Shown piece by piece: positions 23,373 to 39,546 of a stretch of DNA of 61,488 nt (the stretch's first letter is position 1; the number at the start of each line of letters is the position of its first letter). A program made the translations under genes and the position numbers. Source of the DNA: a virus. Its lineage: Duplodnaviria > Heunggongvirae > Uroviricota > Caudoviricetes. The notes beneath the pieces are model-generated. The model was not told where the DNA came from and ran no database searches. It saw nothing but the letters and a program-made list of their open reading frames with translations. Location of the stretch: the IMG/VR virus record IMGVR_UViG_2908567220_000003. One strand, written 5' to 3'.

Positions 23373-23813
23373 TCAGTCATCATCGCCATACATCCAGTCG
23401 TTACGATGTGCCGCCCGTTCTTCCTGCTCGCGATACATGCCCGCCTTACGGTTCGCTTTCGTGGCTGGATCTTCCCGTGTCGTCTTACGGTTGTGGCACG
23501 TCTGGCACAATGCCTGGTGGTTCCACTCAGGCCAGAAGAGAACATCACCGCCGCCATTGATGGGAATGATGTGATCCACCACAAGAGCTGGCGTATAAAT
23601 CCCCTTAGCCAGACAACGCACGCATAACGGGTTTTTGCTCAGGTACAGGGCGCGGTATTTGTCCCACTGCCGGGAATACCCACGCGCGCGGCGGTGCCCC
23701 CGTCTGGCATCCTCTGCACGCCATGCAGCCCGCCTGTGCTCTTCACACTTGCCGGACTTCACGCGCTTATTACAGCCCGGCTCAGTGCATCGCCTTAATG
23801 GTTGCCACGGCAT
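23373..23813 (-). CDS. HNH endonuclease (packaging-associated, satellite copy)
   Basis: 146-aa ORF with Cys-rich HNH motifs (CHNRKTT), directly upstream of terS; ATG verified. Confidence 0.8.
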   Translation of the reverse strand: MPWQPLRRCTEPGCNKRVKSGKCEEHRRAAWRAEDARRGHRRARGYSRQWDKYRALYLSKNPLCVRCLAKGIYTPALVVDHIIPINGGGDVLFWPEWNHQALCQTCHNRKTTREDPATKANRKAGMYREQEERAAHRNDWMYGDDD

Positions 23814-24112
23814 CAGTACACCCCCACATCACGATAAACCGACCAGAGCGCAGAAATAGCCATAGGCAGTTCAGACTGTTCCACAGGTGAAACCGCTTCC
23901 CTGTTCTCGTACAGGAAAGCGATGTACATCAGGCAACCAACACGTATTGCCGGGGTAAATTCCAGCCCGTCTTCAAAACGTTTCCCGATATGCTTCTGGC
24001 AGGCTTCCAGCGCCGCATCGGTATACATTTTCAGAAGTTCGCCTTCTCCGGAAAAGTCATCAAGGCGAAGATGTGCCCTGACTTCATCAGGTGTAATTTT
24101 GTCTTCACTCAT
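23813..24112 (-). CDS. gp6-like head-tail connector protein (satellite copy)
   Basis: ATG at 24112 (MSEDKITPDEVRAHLRLDD) with AGGTGA RBS inside track ORF 23813..24199. Confidence 0.55.
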   Translation of the reverse strand: MSEDKITPDEVRAHLRLDDFSGEGELLKMYTDAALEACQKHIGKRFEDGLEFTPAIRVGCLMYIAFLYENREAVSPVEQSELPMAISALWSVYRDVGVY

Positions 24113-25319
24113 CTTTTTCACCTTTAATTTCCACAGTCTGCTTCCATGCCTGGCTGAACTCGTCGCCACCTTCACGCGGCGGCATTCCCTCACGCTCACG
24201 GGCTTCGTTCGGATTCATGATCCCGTTCTTAATCCCTTTCTCATACGTGGCGTAACGTTCGGTAGGGGTGGCGCGCAGTAAATCGGCTGAATCAAACTCA
24301 ACCAGATAACGGGTACCAGGTACGGGAGAAGCCACCAGCAAAGCGGCCTTGATTTGCTGTTCGAAGTTCGCCAGCCACGGACGCATTGTCATAGTCAGAA
24401 ACGCGCGGCTTGCCTCACTGAAATTGCTGTAGGTGCTGTTGCTGTATTCCTGAAGAAAAATCGGCGACACGTTGAACATACGGGCAATGTCTTCAATGGA
24501 GAAGCGACGGGAGGCCAGCCATTCAGCATCCTGGTTACTCATTCCCAGTTGCTTGTAATCCATGCCCCCTTCAAGGATTGGCGTTTTTCCGGCATTTTTC
24601 GCCCCCTTGTAGCGTTCCAGTGCGTCTAATGCCTGTTTACCTTTCACGCCGTCCAGCCATTCGCCTGACGTGATAATCCCTGCCGCCATCATGCCATCTT
24701 TCATAATGCTGGCTCCGTGGCGCTGTTGAGCAAGGCCAAGCCCCAGCGCCTCACGGCAAATCGTGACAGGGGAGCGCCCCAGAAAGCCATCATCCGAGGC
24801 ATAGCGGAGATGCAGAACTTCTTCCTGTAAATACGTGCGCACCGTTCCTGTACAGGGTTCGGTGATGGTATAGCGGTATTTGTGTGCGCCTGTGCGTTCC
24901 GGTACAACACACCCCGGCGCATAAGGATGAAGTGATTTTGGCTGCCCGTCCTGCCCCCACTCAATAACCGCATAGGCGTTACCGTTCAGCAGACAGTGAC
25001 GCATCATTGTGCGTTTAAACTGGTAAGGTGTCTGGCACGAATTAGGCTGCTCATTCAGCAGAATATCTACCGGATGACTGTCCAGCCATTCCCGCGCCTC
25101 CCTGCCCTTGTCATTACGTACCAGATACAGATAACACGGCATCGTGGCCACCGCCTCAGCGATGACAGAAACCGCGTTCATCACAGCAGGCAATGATTCA
25201 GCCGTCCCGGCAGAAACATATTCTCCGGATCCGGTATTCGGTACGCCGGACAGCGCCAGAAAATCATCAATGGACAGGTTACGTTGCTCGCTTTTTTTAC
25301 GACTAAAAGGCCACCACAT
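24105..25319 (-). CDS. portal protein, HK97 family (satellite copy)
   Basis: track ORF 24105..25409; ATG at 25319 just after protease stop. Confidence 0.85.
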   Translation of the reverse strand: MWWPFSRKKSEQRNLSIDDFLALSGVPNTGSGEYVSAGTAESLPAVMNAVSVIAEAVATMPCYLYLVRNDKGREAREWLDSHPVDILLNEQPNSCQTPYQFKRTMMRHCLLNGNAYAVIEWGQDGQPKSLHPYAPGCVVPERTGAHKYRYTITEPCTGTVRTYLQEEVLHLRYASDDGFLGRSPVTICREALGLGLAQQRHGASIMKDGMMAAGIITSGEWLDGVKGKQALDALERYKGAKNAGKTPILEGGMDYKQLGMSNQDAEWLASRRFSIEDIARMFNVSPIFLQEYSNSTYSNFSEASRAFLTMTMRPWLANFEQQIKAALLVASPVPGTRYLVEFDSADLLRATPTERYATYEKGIKNGIMNPNEAREREGMPPREGGDEFSQAWKQTVEIKGEKDE

Positions 25320-25320
25320 A

Positions 25321-25881
25321 TCACAACCCCGCCAGTTCAGCCCAGCGATGACGATTATTTCCTGCCGGGCGTAATTCAGGGTGCTGTGCAAACAACGAAC
25401 GGTGGGCAATCTCCACGCCAGATTCTGGATAAGCAGGCATCGACGTTATTGTGATTTCTCGGAGTTCAGCGGCGGTTACGGTACGCAAATACGGTTTTTG
25501 CGCGATATTCCATTCTTCGCATAATGCGCGAAAGCCAAAGCTCATTCCTGTAATGTCGCCACGCGACACCAGCGTGAGCACATCTTTTCCAAGCTGGGTA
25601 TCAGGCGGTGTCAGTTCAAAACGTAGCCCGGTGTTGTCCCCAGTCAGTACCAGAGTGCCGGATTTGGTGCGCCCCAGCAGTTGGGTATAGTCATGCTCAT
25701 ACAGGCAGCGCACATCATTACCCGCCGCCAGATAGTCAGCAAAAGCCCCCGGCGTGAACTGTTCGCGGAATTCGTCCCAGATAATTTCTGAAAGGCTGTT
25801 CCAGCGAACGGCATACCCCACCAGCTTTTTATTGCTGGCGGTCAGTTCAGATGTGCGGATTTCAAAATCGGTGTTTTTCAT
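25321..25881 (-). CDS. prohead protease, HK97 family (satellite copy)
   Basis: 186-aa ORF between MCP and portal; ATG verified. Confidence 0.85.
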   Translation of the reverse strand: MKNTDFEIRTSELTASNKKLVGYAVRWNSLSEIIWDEFREQFTPGAFADYLAAGNDVRCLYEHDYTQLLGRTKSGTLVLTGDNTGLRFELTPPDTQLGKDVLTLVSRGDITGMSFGFRALCEEWNIAQKPYLRTVTAAELREITITSMPAYPESGVEIAHRSLFAQHPELRPAGNNRHRWAELAGL

Positions 25882-27105: not shown

Positions 27106-27391
27106 GAAGGTTTTCTCGTATTGGTTAAGATTCAGGACGTGAAACCAACACGGAGGGAGCGCCGCCCGACACTCTCGGCATCTCGCAGATCAACCCGGCA
27201 TCGCGCAGGGGGTCAGGCGGCATTGTGGCGGCTCACGTCTGAGTGCCACACGCCAACATATACATAAAAATCAGTATGTAAACACCTGTCAGTAAGGCCG
27301 AACAACCACGAAAAAACACGAACAAATAATTTACAAAAGAAGTAAACCATGGCCTATTATTGCTACCTCTGACTACAACAAAGGACGCATC

Positions 27392-27898
27392 ATGAATTTA
27401 AGCGCAATGGTATACCCTGATACTTTCATAATTAATGGCGAATCATTTAAAGGTAAAAGAAACGCAAAAGAAAACAAGGTATTAATTCCATATACAAATG
27501 AACCGGAAGTAACTATTGGTCAACACATTATCCAGTGTGTCGGTAAAAACGAGATAAATCTAAAAATTATAGATATGAAGTTGCTTCCCAATGGAACCCT
27601 CAGACAGGGAACCAACCATCCAAATATGTTGACGCTCTATATTGAAAATATCACGGGAAATGAACATATGACGCCACCTAAAAGTAATACATTTAACATT
27701 GGTTCAATTAGTGGTAATCAAGTGCAGATAGGTGAGCATAACCATATGCTGGTAAACATCAGCATCACTGAACTGGTTGAAAAAGTCTCTAAATCGGGGG
27801 ATGTACAAGCCAAATCAGTATTAAAGCAGTTACTGGAAAACAGTACCGTTGCCAGCATTGTTGGGGCTGGCGCAAGTGCCTTAATAGGCTTACTGTAA
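27392..27898 (+). CDS. hypothetical protein with C-terminal hydrophobic tail (satellite accessory gene)
   Basis: 168-aa ORF, ATG with AAAGGA RBS, AT-rich, opposite strand to the rest of the element. Confidence 0.5.
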   Translation: MNLSAMVYPDTFIINGESFKGKRNAKENKVLIPYTNEPEVTIGQHIIQCVGKNEINLKIIDMKLLPNGTLRQGTNHPNMLTLYIENITGNEHMTPPKSNTFNIGSISGNQVQIGEHNHMLVNISITELVEKVSKSGDVQAKSVLKQLLENSTVASIVGAGASALIGLL

Positions 27899-27904
27899 AA
27901 AAAT

Positions 27905-27924
27905 GGCCTGGATTTTACCAGGCC
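27905..27924. terminator. bidirectional Rho-independent terminator between convergent genes
   Basis: stem GGCCTGG / CCAGGCC with 6-nt loop, flanked by A7 upstream and T-rich downstream. Confidence 0.6.
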
Positions 27925-27933
27925 TTTATCATT

Positions 27934-28182
27934 TTACCGTTTCACGGGATCCCGCATTCTGCTTCTTAGTTTCCACAGGTATTCGATCATCGCTTCCACC
28001 TGCTCACGGTTGGTTGCGAAAATTTCCCCGGTCAGTGAGCTGCGCAGAAAATCATGATGATCCACAACAAACAACGCATCGGAAGAAAGCAGACGGCGAT
28101 ATTTTTTTGCTGTCGTGGTTTCCAGATCATCAAAACCATGAAACTTTTTATGTTGCTGAACTTCTTCAAATGTCACAGGCAT
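27934..28182 (-). CDS. hypothetical protein
   Basis: ATG at 28182 with AGGAGG RBS inside track ORF 27934..28221. Confidence 0.5.
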   Translation of the reverse strand: MPVTFEEVQQHKKFHGFDDLETTTAKKYRRLLSSDALFVVDHHDFLRSSLTGEIFATNREQVEAMIEYLWKLRSRMRDPVKR

Positions 28183-28227: not shown

Positions 28228-28512
28228 TCAATTATCCCCTTTTTTTTTCGGGTAGTTCCTGAACATCTCACCGCCAGGTTTCTGTAAGCCCATCCCGGTA
28301 TGTGTGCGGTTTATGGCCTCTTTCAGTATTCCGAAATTATCCGGTATGACTGGTTGGCGCGCTGCCTTACGGATACATTCCGCGCGACGCTTTGCCACCT
28401 GTTCGCGCTCCTTGTCAGTGCTCACCAGCCACATAACATCAGCCCAACGTGCCGCCGCTCTCCGGTACAGCCCTTTAGCCTCCAGTTCTTCCGCTTTGCT
28501 GTCTTTAATCAT
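28228..28512 (-). CDS. PerC-family transcriptional activator-like protein
   Basis: ATG at 28512 (MIKDSKAEELEAKGLYRRAAARW); assignment from remembered PerC N-terminal motif. Confidence 0.5.
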   Translation of the reverse strand: MIKDSKAEELEAKGLYRRAAARWADVMWLVSTDKEREQVAKRRAECIRKAARQPVIPDNFGILKEAINRTHTGMGLQKPGGEMFRNYPKKKGDN

Positions 28513-28527
28513 GCTGTACCTCACTGC

Positions 28528-32424: not shown

Positions 32425-32622
32425 ATGTCTAGCGGTAACACAAACAACAAATCAGCAAAGAAAAATATTCGATTCCCACATGAGCTTATAGATGGGATTG
32501 ATGCCAGCGTTGAACAAGAAAAATTAACTAATCCTAGTGCTAATTTTTCCGCATGGGTCTTAGATGCCTGTGGACGCAAATTAAAATATGAACAGCGCCG
32601 GAAGGCCAAAGAATCAGAATAA
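32425..32622 (+). CDS. ribbon-helix-helix-type DNA-binding regulator (candidate satellite master repressor)
   Basis: 65-aa ORF, ATG with GTGAGGTG RBS; NIRFPHELIDGIDASVEQ pattern fits beta-strand plus helix of RHH fold. Confidence 0.45.
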   Translation: MSSGNTNNKSAKKNIRFPHELIDGIDASVEQEKLTNPSANFSAWVLDACGRKLKYEQRRKAKESE

Positions 32623-34379: not shown

Positions 34380-35030
34380 ATGAATGCACGAAAAGCGGTA
34401 CTGGCAGACAATCCGGAATTGATCCTGCGTGTGCTACAGCTGAGATTTGACGAGTCACTGTCGTACCCGCGCATTTCTGCGCAGACCGGTGTCAGCAAAA
34501 CCGCCATTTTTTCTCTGGTGAGGCGATTTCACCAGGTATTCACTGACTGGCCTCTTTCCGGTGAATATTCCTGCGGGCAACTGGCCCGGGCTCTTTTCCC
34601 GGGGCGATACCCTTCAGCCCCGACCGTGACTCAGCCTGTGAAAGCAGAGAAACCCCGCCGGAACCGATTTTCACCGGAGTTTAAATGGAGACTGGTTCAG
34701 CAAACTCTTTTACCCGGTGCCTGTGTCGCACAAATAGCTCGAGAGAATGGAATTAACGATAACCTGCTCTTTAACTGGCGGCATCTCTGGCGTAACGGTG
34801 GCCTGCAACCGCCCGGCGAACATGAAACATCGCTACTTCCCGTGACGTTAACTCCGGAGCCGGATAATAAAATCCCGGCACCAGTGCAGATACCTGAACA
34901 GATAAATACACTGCCAGACAGTCTGTGCTGCGAGCTGGTTCTGCCGGCCGGAACTCTCAGGCTGAAAGGTGAACTGACACCGGCGTTATTACAGACACTT
35001 ATCCGCGAAATGAAAGGGAGCAGCCACTGA
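34380..35030 (+). CDS. IS66-family accessory protein (orf1, HTH)
   Basis: 216-aa ORF, first of three in the IS. Confidence 0.7.
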   Translation: MNARKAVLADNPELILRVLQLRFDESLSYPRISAQTGVSKTAIFSLVRRFHQVFTDWPLSGEYSCGQLARALFPGRYPSAPTVTQPVKAEKPRRNRFSPEFKWRLVQQTLLPGACVAQIARENGINDNLLFNWRHLWRNGGLQPPGEHETSLLPVTLTPEPDNKIPAPVQIPEQINTLPDSLCCELVLPAGTLRLKGELTPALLQTLIREMKGSSH

Positions 35031-35377
35031 TGATATCTCTCCCTGCCGGTTCGCGTATCTGGCTGGTTGCCGGTATCACCGATATGCGAAATGGCTTTAA
35101 CGGCCTGGCCTCAAAAGTTCAGAACGTCCTGAAGGATGACCCGTTCTCCGGGCATCTGTTCATCTTCCGCGGACGCCGGGGTGACCAGATAAAAGTGCTG
35201 TGGGCTGACAGTGACGGACTGTGCCTCTTCACCAAACGCCTGGAGCGGGGCCGCTTCGTCTGGCCGGTCACCCGCGATGGAAAGGTTCACCTTACTCCGG
35301 CTCAGTTGTCCATGCTTCTCGAAGGCATCGACTGGAAGCACCCGAAACGAACGGAACGCGCTGGCATCCGCATATAA
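35030..35377 (+). CDS. tnpB: IS66-family TnpB (orf2)
   Basis: 115-aa ORF, ATGA overlap with orf1, typical IS66 orf2 size and sequence. Confidence 0.8.
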   Translation: MISLPAGSRIWLVAGITDMRNGFNGLASKVQNVLKDDPFSGHLFIFRGRRGDQIKVLWADSDGLCLFTKRLERGRFVWPVTRDGKVHLTPAQLSMLLEGIDWKHPKRTERAGIRI

Positions 35378-35396
35378 CCCGTTGTAAAGTGAGGAT

Positions 35397-36968
35397 ATGG
35401 ACACCTCACTTGCTCATGAGAATGCCCGCCTGCGGGCACTGTTGCAGACGCAACAGGACACCATCCGCCAGATGGCGAAATACAACCGCCTGCTCTCACA
35501 GCGGGTGGCGGCTTATGCTTCCGAAATCAACCGGCTGAAGGCGCTGGTTGCGAAACTGCAGCGCATGCAGTTCGGTAAAAGCTCAGAAAAACTTCGCGCT
35601 AAAACCGAACGGCAGATACAGGAAGCCCAGGAGCGAATCAGCGCACTTCAGGAAGAAATGGCGGAAACGCTGGATGAGCAATATGACCCGGTACTGCCAT
35701 CCGCCCTGCGCCAGTCTTCAGCCCGTAAGCCGTTACCGGCCTCACTTCCCCGTGAAACCCGGGTCATCCGGCCGGAAGAGGAATGCTGCCCGGCCTGTGG
35801 TGGTGACCTCAGTCCTCTGGGGTGTGATGTGTCAGAGCAACTGGAGCTTATCAGCAGCGCTTTTAAGGTTATCGAAACACAACGTCCGAAACTGGCCTGT
35901 TGCCGGTGCGACCATATCGTGCAGGCACCAGTACCTTCAAAACCCATTGCACGCAGTTATGCCGGAGCGGGGCTTCTGGCTCATATCGTCACCGGGAAGT
36001 ATGCAGACCATCTGCCGTTATACCGCCAGTCAGAAATATACCTTCGTCAGGGCGTGGAACTGAGCCGCGCCACGCTGGGGCGCTGGACCGGTGCCGTTGC
36101 TGAACTGCTGGAGCCGCTGTATGACGTGCTGCGCCAGTATGTGCTGATGCCCGGTAAAGTCCATGCGGATGATATCCCCGTTCCGGTCCAGGAGCCGGGC
36201 AGTGGTAAAACAAGAACTGCCCGGCTGTGGGTCTATGTCCGTGATGACCGTAACGCCGGTTCACAGATGCCCCCGGCGGTCTGGTTCGCGTACAGCCCGG
36301 ACCGGAAAGGTATCCATCCACAGAATCACCTGGCCGGTTACAGCGGTGTGCTTCAGGCAGATGCTTACGGTGGTTACCGGGCGTTATACGAATCCGGCAG
36401 AATAACGGAAGCCGCGTGTATGGCCCATGCCCGGAGAAAAATCCACGATGTGCATGCAAGAGTGCCAACCGACATCACCACGGAAGCCCTGCAGCGTATC
36501 GGTGAACTGTATGTCATCGAGGCAGAAGTCCGGGGATGTTCAGCAGAACAGCGTCTGGCAGCAAGAAAAGCCAGAGCGGCTCCACTGATGCAGTCACTGT
36601 ATGACTGGATACAGGAACAGATGAAAACACTGTCGCGTCACTCGGATACGGCAAAAGCGTTCGCATACCTGCTGAAACAGTGGGAGGCCCTGAACGTGTA
36701 CTGCAGTAATGGCTGGGTGGAAATCGACAACAACATCGCAGAGAACGCCTTACGGGGAGTGGCCGTAGGCCGGAAAAACTGGCTCTTCGCGGGTTCCGAC
36801 AGCGGTGGCGAACATGCGGCGGTGTTGTACTCGCTGATCGGCACATGCCGTCTGAACAATGTGGAACCAGAAAAATGGCTGCGTTACGTCATTGAGCATA
36901 TCCAGGATTGGCCGGCAAACCGGGTACGCGATCTGTTGCCCTGGAAAGTTGATCTGACCTCTCAGTAA
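35397..36968 (+). CDS. tnpC: IS66-family transposase (orf3)
   Basis: 523-aa ORF with leucine-zipper-like N-terminus and Cys-rich motif. Confidence 0.8.
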
Positions 36969-37122: not shown

Positions 37123-38346
37123 TCACGCGTAACTATTTGAATCATTACTGTCACCACTAATTTGCTTATTCAGATAGTCGTACCACCAGTTCATAGCTTC
37201 TTTTTTTCTGTCCATATACTGGCTTCTGTTATAAACCCCGGCAACACCGCCTAATGTGTGCCCAAGCAACTGTTCAACCACATTATGTTCAAAACCATGA
37301 TCACTTAGTTTTGTGGCAAACACTCTTCGCATATCATGCGCCGTCCATTTCTCCGAGTGTTTCATCCTTTTCCATGTCTTACCGATAGTTACGCTTGCCG
37401 TACACTGACGCATATCAAACCCAATCACATTTTCTTTGTTACCTGTTATTTTTTTTAACGTAACTAACCAGTTAAACATGCCATCAGGAATCGGTCTGAT
37501 TATTTCCCTGCCATTTTTGCTATGATCAGCGGGAACGCGCCATAATTTCTTATCAAAATCCCACTCTACCCAGGACGACAGTAATACTTCTGACAGTCGA
37601 CAACCAAAAACTACCAGGAAACGTAAAATAATTCGGTTTTCATATGATAATTCGTGATTGTCATAATCAGTATTAATACTTCGCCATAAATCTCTGATTT
37701 CATCATCTGTTAAAACCCTGCTTCTTCGCGCAGACTTTTTTCCCACATCACAGACCTCAAGATCATCAATTTCATGACTAATCGCGTATTTTCTTACCCT
37801 ACAAAATTTAAGCGCCTGTTTTGATATACGCAACAAAGCTCCGGCCTGTACAGGTGCTACTTTTTTTATTTTGTCAAAACACTTAATCCACATAGATATA
37901 GAGCAATCACTAAGTGGTACATGACCAATCACCGGATAAATATGTTTACCAAAGCACTGCCTGATATGTTCTGCTCCCCTACGCTTATCCATTGCATAAT
38001 TATCAAGCCAGTATTCAAGTGCCTCACGAACGGTAACAGGTTGCAAGGTGGCTTCCCGTTCAATTTTTATCTGAATCCGTGGATCTCTGCCCTCCGCAAG
38101 CCAAGTTCGACACTGATCGCGCATCTCTCTCGCTGATTTGAGACTCAGATCAGGATATTTTCCAAGTGTCAGCCAGATGGGCGCGGTTTCCCTTCCCGCC
38201 AGTCTGTAAAAGAAAACAAAACTAACACATCCGTATTTACTGACCCGTACCGAAAGCCCGTTACCATCAGCGATGGTTTCCTGCCTCTCACTCCTGCGTC
38301 CAAGCAGGGAACGAAGTTTTTTATCGCTCAGTTTGTTTAGCGCCAT
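37123..38346 (-). CDS. int: tyrosine integrase, P4-type (satellite)
   Basis: ATG at 38346 (MALNKLSDKKLRS) inside track ORF 37123..39546; C-terminal R..H..GH..Y catalytic pattern; adjacent to right junction. Confidence 0.85.
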   Translation of the reverse strand: MALNKLSDKKLRSLLGRRSERQETIADGNGLSVRVSKYGCVSFVFFYRLAGRETAPIWLTLGKYPDLSLKSAREMRDQCRTWLAEGRDPRIQIKIEREATLQPVTVREALEYWLDNYAMDKRRGAEHIRQCFGKHIYPVIGHVPLSDCSISMWIKCFDKIKKVAPVQAGALLRISKQALKFCRVRKYAISHEIDDLEVCDVGKKSARRSRVLTDDEIRDLWRSINTDYDNHELSYENRIILRFLVVFGCRLSEVLLSSWVEWDFDKKLWRVPADHSKNGREIIRPIPDGMFNWLVTLKKITGNKENVIGFDMRQCTASVTIGKTWKRMKHSEKWTAHDMRRVFATKLSDHGFEHNVVEQLLGHTLGGVAGVYNRSQYMDRKKEAMNWWYDYLNKQISGDSNDSNSYA

Positions 38347-38518
38347 GTGATTTATAACCCGTTTTTGCAATACACAGTGCAATACACAAATGATGAAAAC
38401 AGCCAGAACCTTCCAGAAAAAACAAAAACGACGAACAAGAAAAAAATCTTTTTCTTTCATTTGGTTACTAAAAAAATCAGGACAGGTCGCACTGTTGTTA
38501 CGGCGTGATGTTACTTTC

Positions 38519-39546
38519 TTGGTAAAAAAATTCACCCGCGCAGAGACCTGCTCCTTCGCTTTTTTCGCCAGACGACGCAGATCATCCCAGCGTTTACAGA
38601 TGCCCAGGCCAGGATTCGCTTTCTGCCAGACCGTTTCATCAAACGGATCATCTCCCTCATCGAGCGTGTAAATGATCGCAAAGTAGGAGTCGTCTTTTAC
38701 CGCGCCCTCCACGTCGCTGTTATAGCCTCGCAATACCTTAATGGCGTAATCGCGCTGCTCGTAGCAAATCCCTTCCTTGTTAAAGCCAGCCGTGGTGATG
38801 CCAAATAACAGAGACTGCAGACGGGCACCGGTTGCCGTTTCCAGAACGTCCCACACGTCACGGGTTTTATGAGCATGCAGCTCATCAATAATGGCACAGT
38901 GGATGTTCAGACCGTCCAGGTTGTTTGCATCCGAGGAAAGCGGTTCAAATTTTGATGCGCTCTGCTCCTGGTAAATCGCCAGCTTGTTGAAGTCAAACAA
39001 CCGCCCGAGTGTCGACCGGGCTTTTCTGACCATATTTTTGGCGTCTTCAAACACAATTCTGGCCTGGTCACGCGTGGTTGCGGCTGAATACACCTCAGCC
39101 CCGCCTTCACCATCTGCCCCCGTCATATACAGACCGATACCCGATGACAGGGTTGATTTTGCGTTTTTACGGGCAACTTCGTTGTATGCTGTCCGGAACC
39201 GGCGCACCATCACCGGGCGTCCACTGCCATCGCTGCGCATGACAACTTCCCCGGTTTCTTCATTCACCAGCGGAATGACAAAACCAAAAATATTAATGAG
39301 GATAAACACATGCCAGTCCATCAACTCAATGGGCTGACCTGCCAGCGCCCCTTTCACATGGGGTACAAATTTGTAGAAATTAAGGATGTGCTGTGCACGA
39401 GGTTCACTGAAATAAATCCCCCGCTCTTCGCCGTACTTCAGATCATCAAGAAAACGCTGGCAGGCCAGACGGACAAATTCGCCAGCAACAATTTCTCCTG
39501 CAACAACACGTTCGGCGTAGCGGATCCCGTCAGCCACTTTTGCCAT
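38519..39546 (-). pseudogene. terL: terminase large subunit, N-terminal (ATPase) fragment of the interrupted prophage terL
   Basis: first ~345 codons of track ORF 37123..39546 align to N-terminal half of TerL 21083..22744 up to the FFTKK motif; ATG overlaps terS stop. Confidence 0.8.

Follow-up and report, generated by a model that had tools for sequence, protein, structure and literature searches.

What might be the function of a small AT-rich gene that runs against its neighbors between the capsid gene and the replication genes of a phage satellite? The gene in question (27392..27898, plus strand, with an ATG start) lies in a 61,488-nucleotide stretch of Caudoviricetes DNA, IMG/VR record IMGVR_UViG_2908567220_000003, which is referred to here in its whole length as the window; the region is 99.9% identical to Escherichia coli 042. 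The gene encodes a protein of 168 amino acids (aa), WP_001053661.1, and by gene layout the element that carries it is a capsid-forming phage-inducible chromosomal island (cf-PICI). Within the 168-aa protein, a predicted N-terminal β-barrel is joined to a helical, hydrophobic tail by a segment that is specifically similar in sequence to solved RHIM amyloid cores. RHIM motifs operate in necroptosis and antiviral signaling in animals and have been copied by herpesviruses. The reading preferred here, tentatively and at somewhat less than even confidence, is that the 168-aa protein is a single-protein anti-phage effector in which sensing would drive RHIM-like polymerization and membrane attack; it draws on sequence, on structural models and on analogy with known systems.

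The protein divides into three parts, the last of which comprises a helical unit and its tail, all encoded on the plus strand. The AlphaFold2 (AF2) model, built with a 91-sequence alignment, places an N-terminal β-barrel domain at codons 1-92 (27392..27667), with a predicted local distance difference test score (pLDDT) of ~85-91. Codons 100-125 (27689..27766) encode the RHIM-like motif, TFNIGSISGNQVQIGEHNHMLVNISI, with hydrophobic/polar alternation and Gly/Asn breaks. Two amphipathic helices of the pattern D-x-x-AK...L..LLEN follow at codons 126-150 (27767..27841; modeled as helices 125-135 and 138-149, pLDDT 86-94), and a hydrophobic, small-residue-rich helix, STVASIVGAGASALIGLL, completes the protein at codons 151-168 and the stop codon (27842..27898; modeled helix 151-167). 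The hydrophobic C-terminal tail noticed in a preliminary description of this DNA, which was made from its letters alone, is borne out: TVASIVGAGASALIGLL is the hydropathy peak of the protein, with a Kyte-Doolittle 17-residue mean of 1.91 at aa 152-168. The C-terminal helix is a putative tail anchor or membrane-insertion segment, and the N-terminal barrel, as modeled, is a candidate sensor or ligand-binding part. Foldseek searches with the N-domain fold against the PDB and against viral models (BFVD) returned nothing significant. PilZ, which binds c-di-GMP, was considered as an identity for this domain and rejected, as the RxxxR and [DN]xSxxG signatures are not present, and a weak match of the whole-protein profile to CsrA in the PDB (E 0.15) was taken as chance.

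The segment between the barrel and the helices carries the central observation. FNIGSISGNQVQIGEHNHMLVNISI is strongly conserved yet disordered in the model; residues 93-122 have a pLDDT of 55-59 and no secondary structure. Conservation, expressed as mean majority frequency, is 0.75 over residues 100-125 versus 0.68 for the N-domain and is highest, at 0.84, in the C-terminal helix. A segment that is more conserved than the folded N-domain and nonetheless unstructured in the AF2 model is as expected of an amyloid switch. I103, Q112, G114, and N117 are invariant in the 91 homologues, as are D137, A140, and N150 of the helical unit. The RHIM core, [IV]-Q-[IV]-G with an Asn three residues on, is present as V111-Q112-I113-G114 and N117, and its Q, G, and N are invariant and its V/I positions nearly so, across the 91 homologues as well as across a diverse set of 58 module sequences. 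Pfam RHIM (PF12721) is the sole Pfam match of the window protein (14.8 bits, E 0.021) and likewise the most frequent match among its relatives, 8 of 35 of which match at E<=1 (best 0.0039), all below threshold. When a motif profile made from 58 diverse 32-residue segments was searched against 177,635 distinct PDB sequences at E<=10, it gave ten matches, and all ten were RHIM amyloid-core constructs: RIPK1 (E 3.6e-5 and 4.1e-5), RIPK3 (0.04-0.5), and a viral ribonucleotide reductase (RNR)-like RHIM protein (0.06). A column-permuted control profile found one unrelated match in the same sequences, at E 1.8. Some relatives read NSEGIQIGDHN where mouse RIPK1 reads NSSGIQIGNHN. Cross-β or amyloid formation by the motif segment would be in keeping with its high conservation and modeled disorder. 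The preliminary description had recognized no family for this protein or for the 82-aa product of the convergent neighboring gene, and as far as curated families go that stands: Pfam and NCBIfam gave nothing above threshold for either protein, PHROGs gave function-unknown families only, and no curated family covers the unit of motif, helices, and tail. The RHIM-like motif, on the other hand, had been overlooked.

That unit behaves as a module. An exhaustive profile search over 1.84 billion representatives at E<=1e-3 matched 241 proteins, many of them solely over the C-terminal 75 residues, which comprise the motif, the helices, and the tail. Clustering of the N-terminal parts, among the matches listed, has the module joined to at least 17 unrelated N-terminal groups; Vibrio, Citrobacter, Enterobacter, and Salinivibrio are named carriers of alternative N-domains, and Pfam gave no assignment for the N-terminal groups that were tested. 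A search with the module only, in a set of 5.8 billion proteins, yielded mostly fragments and no new domain architectures. One module on many N-domains fits the sensor-swapping pattern that is typical of immune proteins. Natural motif-less variants occur as well, and in one of them, P0136, a proline-rich linker takes the place of the VQIG core.

A two-gene form of the cargo is found in two islands. Two tandem plus-strand motif genes fill the slot in E. coli MS20657 (locus L006, 5260..6563) and in Klebsiella (locus L020, 5230..6510). The first encodes a protein of 254-255 aa that carries the motif and a helix (NIFNIATVNSQYVQLGTNNNINIQELSEFFSKIA) in its C-terminal part, without the hydrophobic tail; the second, directly after it, encodes a 169-aa homologue of the window protein with the full module. 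The motif partners score E 9e-6 in L006 and 7e-4 in L020, and for the N-part of the 254-aa protein there are relatives among the family members with the full module. By its sequences this tandem resembles a two-component amyloid-signaling pair, and it is the only arrangement here that does so.

Whether the gene is cargo, as the preliminary description had proposed from its orientation, composition and placement, can be judged from the element and its relatives. The minus-strand genes around the slot encode TerL, TerS, HNH, a gp6-like connector, the portal, a protease, and the HK97 capsid protein, and past the slot come, in order, the 82-aa gene, PerC, SSB, a DUF927 primase, small genes, AlpA, and the integrase, whereas tail or lysis genes are absent from the island open reading frames (ORFs) and annotation. 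Integrase, AlpA, and primase/replication genes combined with the element's own HK97 capsid, protease, portal, connector, HNH, TerS, and TerL define a cf-PICI, and the slot is a variable one between its capsid gene and its regulatory and replication genes. Alignment of filled islands (the window and L002) with empty ones (L003-L005) delimits a cargo cassette of 579 bp and 37.8% GC on the plus strand (27339..27917), whose edges are sharp and which stands in for ~30 bp of the empty islands. It contains a -10-like element, a ribosome-binding site, the 168-aa gene, and the left arm of a terminator hairpin. The gene is AT-rich as had been described, with 37.3% GC (36% at third codon positions) against 50.8% for the island and 51-60% for neighboring genes, and its ribosome-binding site is good, an AGGA read from the sequence at 27382..27385 on the plus strand, 6 nt 5' of the ATG. 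A possible weak sigma-70 promoter, recognized by eye, combines a backbone TTTACA with a TATTAT from the cassette across 19 nt (27330..27360, plus strand); a consensus promoter scan did not report this candidate, the scan permitting only 16-18 nt spacers. A hairpin of GGCCTGG-ATTTTA-CCAGGCC is found at 27905..27924 on either strand, with folding energies of -14.4 and -15.2 kcal/mol and z values of -4.5 and -3.2 versus shuffles. This is the bidirectional terminator of the preliminary description, with one correction: only minus-direction transcription, that of the 82-aa gene, meets a strong T-run (ATTTTTTT), and in the plus direction the run is weak (TTTATCATTTT). The cassette contributes the left arm and loop and the backbone the right arm, CCAGGCC, and in empty islands this right arm is part of the 82-aa gene's own terminator. 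The 168-aa gene had also been called the only sizeable plus-strand gene of the element. No other plus-strand gene of the satellite backbone exceeds 100 aa, although the plus strand also carries an inserted IS66 element and a YlcI/YnfO gene of 65 aa (32425..32622).

The two convergent genes of the slot have different histories. The 168-aa gene is a discrete low-GC cassette, missing from near-identical islands and present in about half of related cf-PICIs, so that it does have the character of horizontally acquired cargo in a variable slot; a survey of 5,426 complete E. coli genomes gives 76 that carry it (51 close alleles and 25 copies of a ~71% identical allele) and 156 with the capsid gene of the island lineage. 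The 82-aa gene (WP_001145405.1; 27934..28182, minus strand), which the preliminary description had treated as AT-rich cargo as well, is only mildly AT-rich, at 45% GC, and is kept at the matching position with or without the cassette, the behavior of a conserved core component, so the cargo claim has to be given up for this gene. Both genes are present in the island of E. coli strain 2D, and in E. coli O177:H21, OkiPb01701, and MSB1_8B the 82-aa gene lies directly upstream of the capsid gene without the 168-aa gene. Its convergent ORF ends ten bases past the hairpin. The encoded protein is helical and has the motif DHHDF[LVI]RS, which is common to homologues of 41-48% identity at the equivalent position in Klebsiella and Serratia islands; its family is narrow in a homologue search, its PHROG match is to the function-unknown family phrog_1957, and its AF2 model, with a pLDDT of 52, is uninformative. 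The 82-aa gene is conserved satellite backbone and no part of the proposed device.

Homologues of the cargo gene are found well beyond this island. Given that RefSeq annotates both ORFs under the accessions above, and that a search at E<=1e-3 gives 98 cluster representatives for the 168-aa protein in gamma-proteobacteria, both are real genes. The 98 representatives come from Enterobacterales, Pseudomonas, Shewanella, and Xanthomonas, and all are ~168-171 aa and annotated as hypothetical. In cf-PICIs of Serratia, Salmonella, and Klebsiella whose replication modules differ, the gene fills the matching slot and is encoded on the opposite strand. In P2-like prophages of Enterobacter and Pseudomonas the gene sits at the prophage end, after gpD/ogr; in lambdoid phages it takes moron sites, either between Rz and the HNH/terminase genes or on the opposite strand between Q and the lysis genes; and in Xanthomonas and Shewanella it lies within chromosomal islands. 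These locations in prophages, satellites, and islands are typical of accessory or defense cargo. Adjoining genes in the Xanthomonas and Shewanella islands match the PADLOC defense candidates PDC-S31 (2e-23) and PDC-S60 (2e-30), and the neighborhood of a distant homologue in Pseudomonas includes a defense-type subtilase. Domain modularity and defense-candidate neighbors together strengthen the suggestion, already made in the preliminary description, of an anti-phage or helper-interference function. No partner gene is shared among the neighborhoods: the Pseudomonas and Enterobacter copies are each preceded by a gene of ~200 aa, and these two genes are unrelated to one another and lack the motif.

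The likeness to established RHIMs (RIPK1, RIPK3, ZBP1, TRIF, murine cytomegalovirus (MCMV) M45, and herpes simplex virus (HSV) ICP6; PF12721) involves the core I/V-Q-I/V-G-x-x-N, an I-x-x-x-I-x-N/S before it, hydrophobic/polar alternation after it, and a segment that is unstructured in the monomer, here according to AF2. The differences are that the present motif belongs to a 168-aa bacterial protein on a phage satellite, without a kinase or death-domain context, that it is internal and runs directly into a helical hydrophobic tail, that its Pfam score is sub-threshold, and that the window protein has Q, not G, at -4 from the core G. Bacterial RHIM-like motifs are not without precedent. Those of BASS3 form prion-like fibrils in bacteria and have been reported solely from multicellular Actinobacteria and Cyanobacteria, in which the motif is at the C-terminus of the effector and the N-terminus of an NLR (bioRxiv 10.1101/2020.01.06.895854). 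With BASS3 and the fungal PP motif, which occur in pairs of a Bell or HeLo effector and an NLR, the present family shares a short RHIM-like motif, membrane-targeting helical parts (here as predicted), and immunity-type contexts, and the MS20657 and Klebsiella variants also share the feature of a motif common to two adjacent genes. In contrast, the gene described here usually stands alone in unicellular gamma-proteobacterial hosts and combines a sensor-like domain, the motif, and the membrane part in that order in one chain. No NLR or STAND gene is found near the 168-aa gene, the motif is internal (aa 100-125 of 168), and the helical unit, which does include a hydrophobic terminal helix, matches neither Bell nor HeLo in sequence or fold.

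Host and genetic setting are paralleled by Bab/Agp (BASS11) of E. coli ECOR25, an abortive-infection system whose membrane-active effector is under the control of an amyloid motif (bioRxiv 10.1101/2024.11.07.622273). In Bab, the hydrophobic helix is N-terminal and the motif C-terminal, and the protein requires Agp, a 1,094-aa sensor that is encoded next to it (bioRxiv 10.1101/2024.11.07.622273). Both cases concern E. coli, a mobile element, and a small protein that couples an amyloid-type motif to a membrane-active helical part, predicted as such in the 168-aa protein; the motif families differ, however, BASS11 there and RHIM-like here, and no sequence similarity was detected. Judged on sequence, the present family differs from both Bab/Agp and BASS3 in its internal motif, in its lack of an NLR or large sensor, in having the membrane part after the motif, and in its unicellular gamma-proteobacterial hosts. 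The cassette itself is like the defense cargo of PICI and P4 hotspots in occupying a discrete variable slot between conserved modules, in its low GC, opposite orientation, and own expression signals, and in its presence or absence among near-identical islands, and it is unlike that cargo in matching no catalogued defense system. A description of the cf-PICI slot as a hotspot was not found in the searchable literature, nor was any mention in the literature of either accession or of phrog_5789, or any report of RHIM-like motifs in proteobacterial phages, prophages, or satellites.

How a protein of this kind might act can be sketched. In the resting cell, the 168-aa protein would be monomeric and its RHIM-like segment disordered. 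The cytoplasmic N-terminal barrel would recognize something, probably a phage component, and during infection the engagement or crowding of N-domains would nucleate a RHIM-like cross-β polymer. Such a polymer would align many of the C-terminal Gly/Ala-rich helices, which could then insert in or disrupt the inner membrane, and the infected cell would be killed or arrested (abortive infection), with protection of the clone and of the resident satellite. A broader proposition, and a doubtful one for the present, is that gamma-proteobacterial phages and satellites widely carry a single-gene abortive-infection module that unites a RHIM-type functional-amyloid switch, a membrane-inserting tail, and interchangeable sensors in one chain.

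A number of observations weigh against an effector of this description. The window protein, at 14.8 bits, falls below the PF12721 gathering threshold of 20 bits, and its G-N-Q-V-Q-I-G departs from the canonical G-phi-Q-phi-G, the upstream Gly being shifted by two residues. The motif is short, hence the resemblance may have arisen by convergence. Three relatives, P0130, P0136, and P0201, keep the helices and tail and lack the VQIG core, and the tail unit can therefore exist without the motif. To our knowledge, every characterized amyloid-signaling system has a motif-bearing partner, and no second motif-bearing ORF is found in the 61-kb window or in loci L008-L013, L018, L019, and L021. The hydrophobic helix is only ~17 residues long, and what AF2 models may be its packing in a small bundle and not in a membrane. 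The identity of the N-domain is ambiguous. Finally, the 168-aa protein matches no known defense family in Pfam, NCBIfam, or PADLOC, and PADLOC-DB 2.0.0 in particular gave no match at E<=1 for the 168-aa, 82-aa, or PerC proteins.

Several of these same points would suit an ordinary tail-anchored moron, active in superinfection exclusion or some other membrane-associated lysogenic conversion, in which the segment would be a β-strand oligomerization interface and the likeness to RHIM convergent, with neither an amyloid switch nor cell death. The moron and cargo positions in prophages and satellites, the hydrophobic C-terminus, the sub-threshold Pfam score, the VQIG-less relatives that retain helix and tail, and the usual lack of a motif-bearing partner are all in line with such a protein, which must be considered possible if rather unlikely. 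What speaks against it is that the motif profile picks RHIM cores exclusively from 177,635 sequences, at E values down to 3.6e-5, and the permuted control fails to do so; that the segment is invariant exactly at the RHIM core positions and outside any modeled fold; and that a constant module on at least 17 N-domains is more typical of sensor-effector immune proteins. The barrel could also have a more particular target. If it mimicked a head-closure or stopper protein, it might bind helper or competitor capsids at their connector, and polymerization with membrane tethering would then sequester heads, leaving tails for the satellite's own capsids or simply blocking virion completion. The resemblance of the N-domain to phage neck proteins is a lead only, and sequence gave no support for a relationship with head-closure proteins (Phage_HCP, PF05521); helper interference of this form appears unlikely.

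Two further explanations have far less to recommend them than either of these. The adjacency of the 168-aa and 82-aa genes, and the hairpin common to both, might suggest that the former belongs to the structural or regulatory core of the satellite and that the two form a functional pair, for instance a toxin and antitoxin. Many islands, however, have the 82-aa gene without the 168-aa gene, about half lack the latter, and in prophages and chromosomal islands members of the 168-aa family are found where the 82-aa gene is absent. A toxin-antitoxin pairing was ruled out by these patterns of presence and absence, and the explanation as a whole, already largely refuted, is very improbable. Equally improbable is mimicry of a eukaryotic RHIM, by which an enteroaggregative E. 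coli would interfere with RIPK1/RIPK3 necroptosis as herpesvirus RHIM proteins do. Similarity to the RIPK1 and RIPK3 cores and a host strain of a type pathogenic to humans would be consistent with it, but the protein lacks a signal peptide or any secretion signal, the family extends to Pseudomonas, Xanthomonas, Shewanella, Vibrio, and Salinivibrio of environmental and plant-associated origin, and its genes are carried by phage-related elements and lie beside defense candidates. The preferred reading remains that of a single-protein anti-phage effector, with the reserve already expressed.

The surroundings of the slot have features of their own. On its left flank, the 233-bp backbone region upstream of the capsid gene (27106..27338, minus strand) is conserved at nearly 100% identity in an alignment of five islands with different cargo and replication genes. 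It is GC-rich, with several short palindromes, and from its sequence could be a late promoter, a leader, or another cis-acting site; an Rfam search of a region including it returned nothing credible. On the other side, the gene for a PerC-family transcriptional activator (28228..28524; E 3e-35) adjoins the 82-aa gene, and in other islands it is swapped for, or joined by, one for a ProQ/FinO-family protein. There is therefore a second variable position just to the right of the 82-aa gene. Among the head genes, the window has a gp6-like connector gene within 23813..25409 and no head-closure (Phage_HCP) gene between connector and portal; such a gene is present in related islands of E. coli O177:H21 (L003, 656..994), Serratia, Salmonella, and Klebsiella (L018-L020).

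The satellite as a whole sits within the terL gene of a prophage. A single-frame ORF of 807 aa (37123..39546, minus strand) combines TerL_ATPase, the first 64 positions of TerL_nuclease, an Arm-DNA-binding domain, and Phage_integrase, and the remainder of TerL_nuclease is on the opposite side of the island (19831..20556, minus strand); RefSeq annotates a split terL pseudogene and int at the insertion site. Since the satellite is inside terL, integration has disrupted the terminase of the resident phage, and it may have placed the satellite integrase behind the phage late operon. Between the AlpA gene of the island and the integrase is the IS66-family element already referred to (34380..36968, plus strand), which encodes an HTH_Tnp_1 protein, a TnpB-like 115-aa ORF, and a DDE_Tnp_IS66 transposase. 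The RefSeq locus of E. coli 042 is without it and ~2.7 kb shorter there.

So far, the bacterial relatives of the RHIM, those of BASS3, have come from filamentous bacteria alone, in two-gene NLR systems. If the broader proposition of a widespread single-gene module is true, RHIM-based death signaling would exist in unicellular Gram-negative bacteria, and the necroptosis motif of animals would either descend from an anti-viral prokaryotic one or have a striking twin by convergence. For the coupling of an amyloid switch to membrane damage, a RHIM-like segment in a 168-aa E. coli protein on a mobilizable satellite would offer a very simple and genetically tractable model, and a compact, sensor-swappable effector would join the anti-phage repertoire. 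More broadly, the cargo slot of cf-PICIs is now defined and can be mined for further functions.

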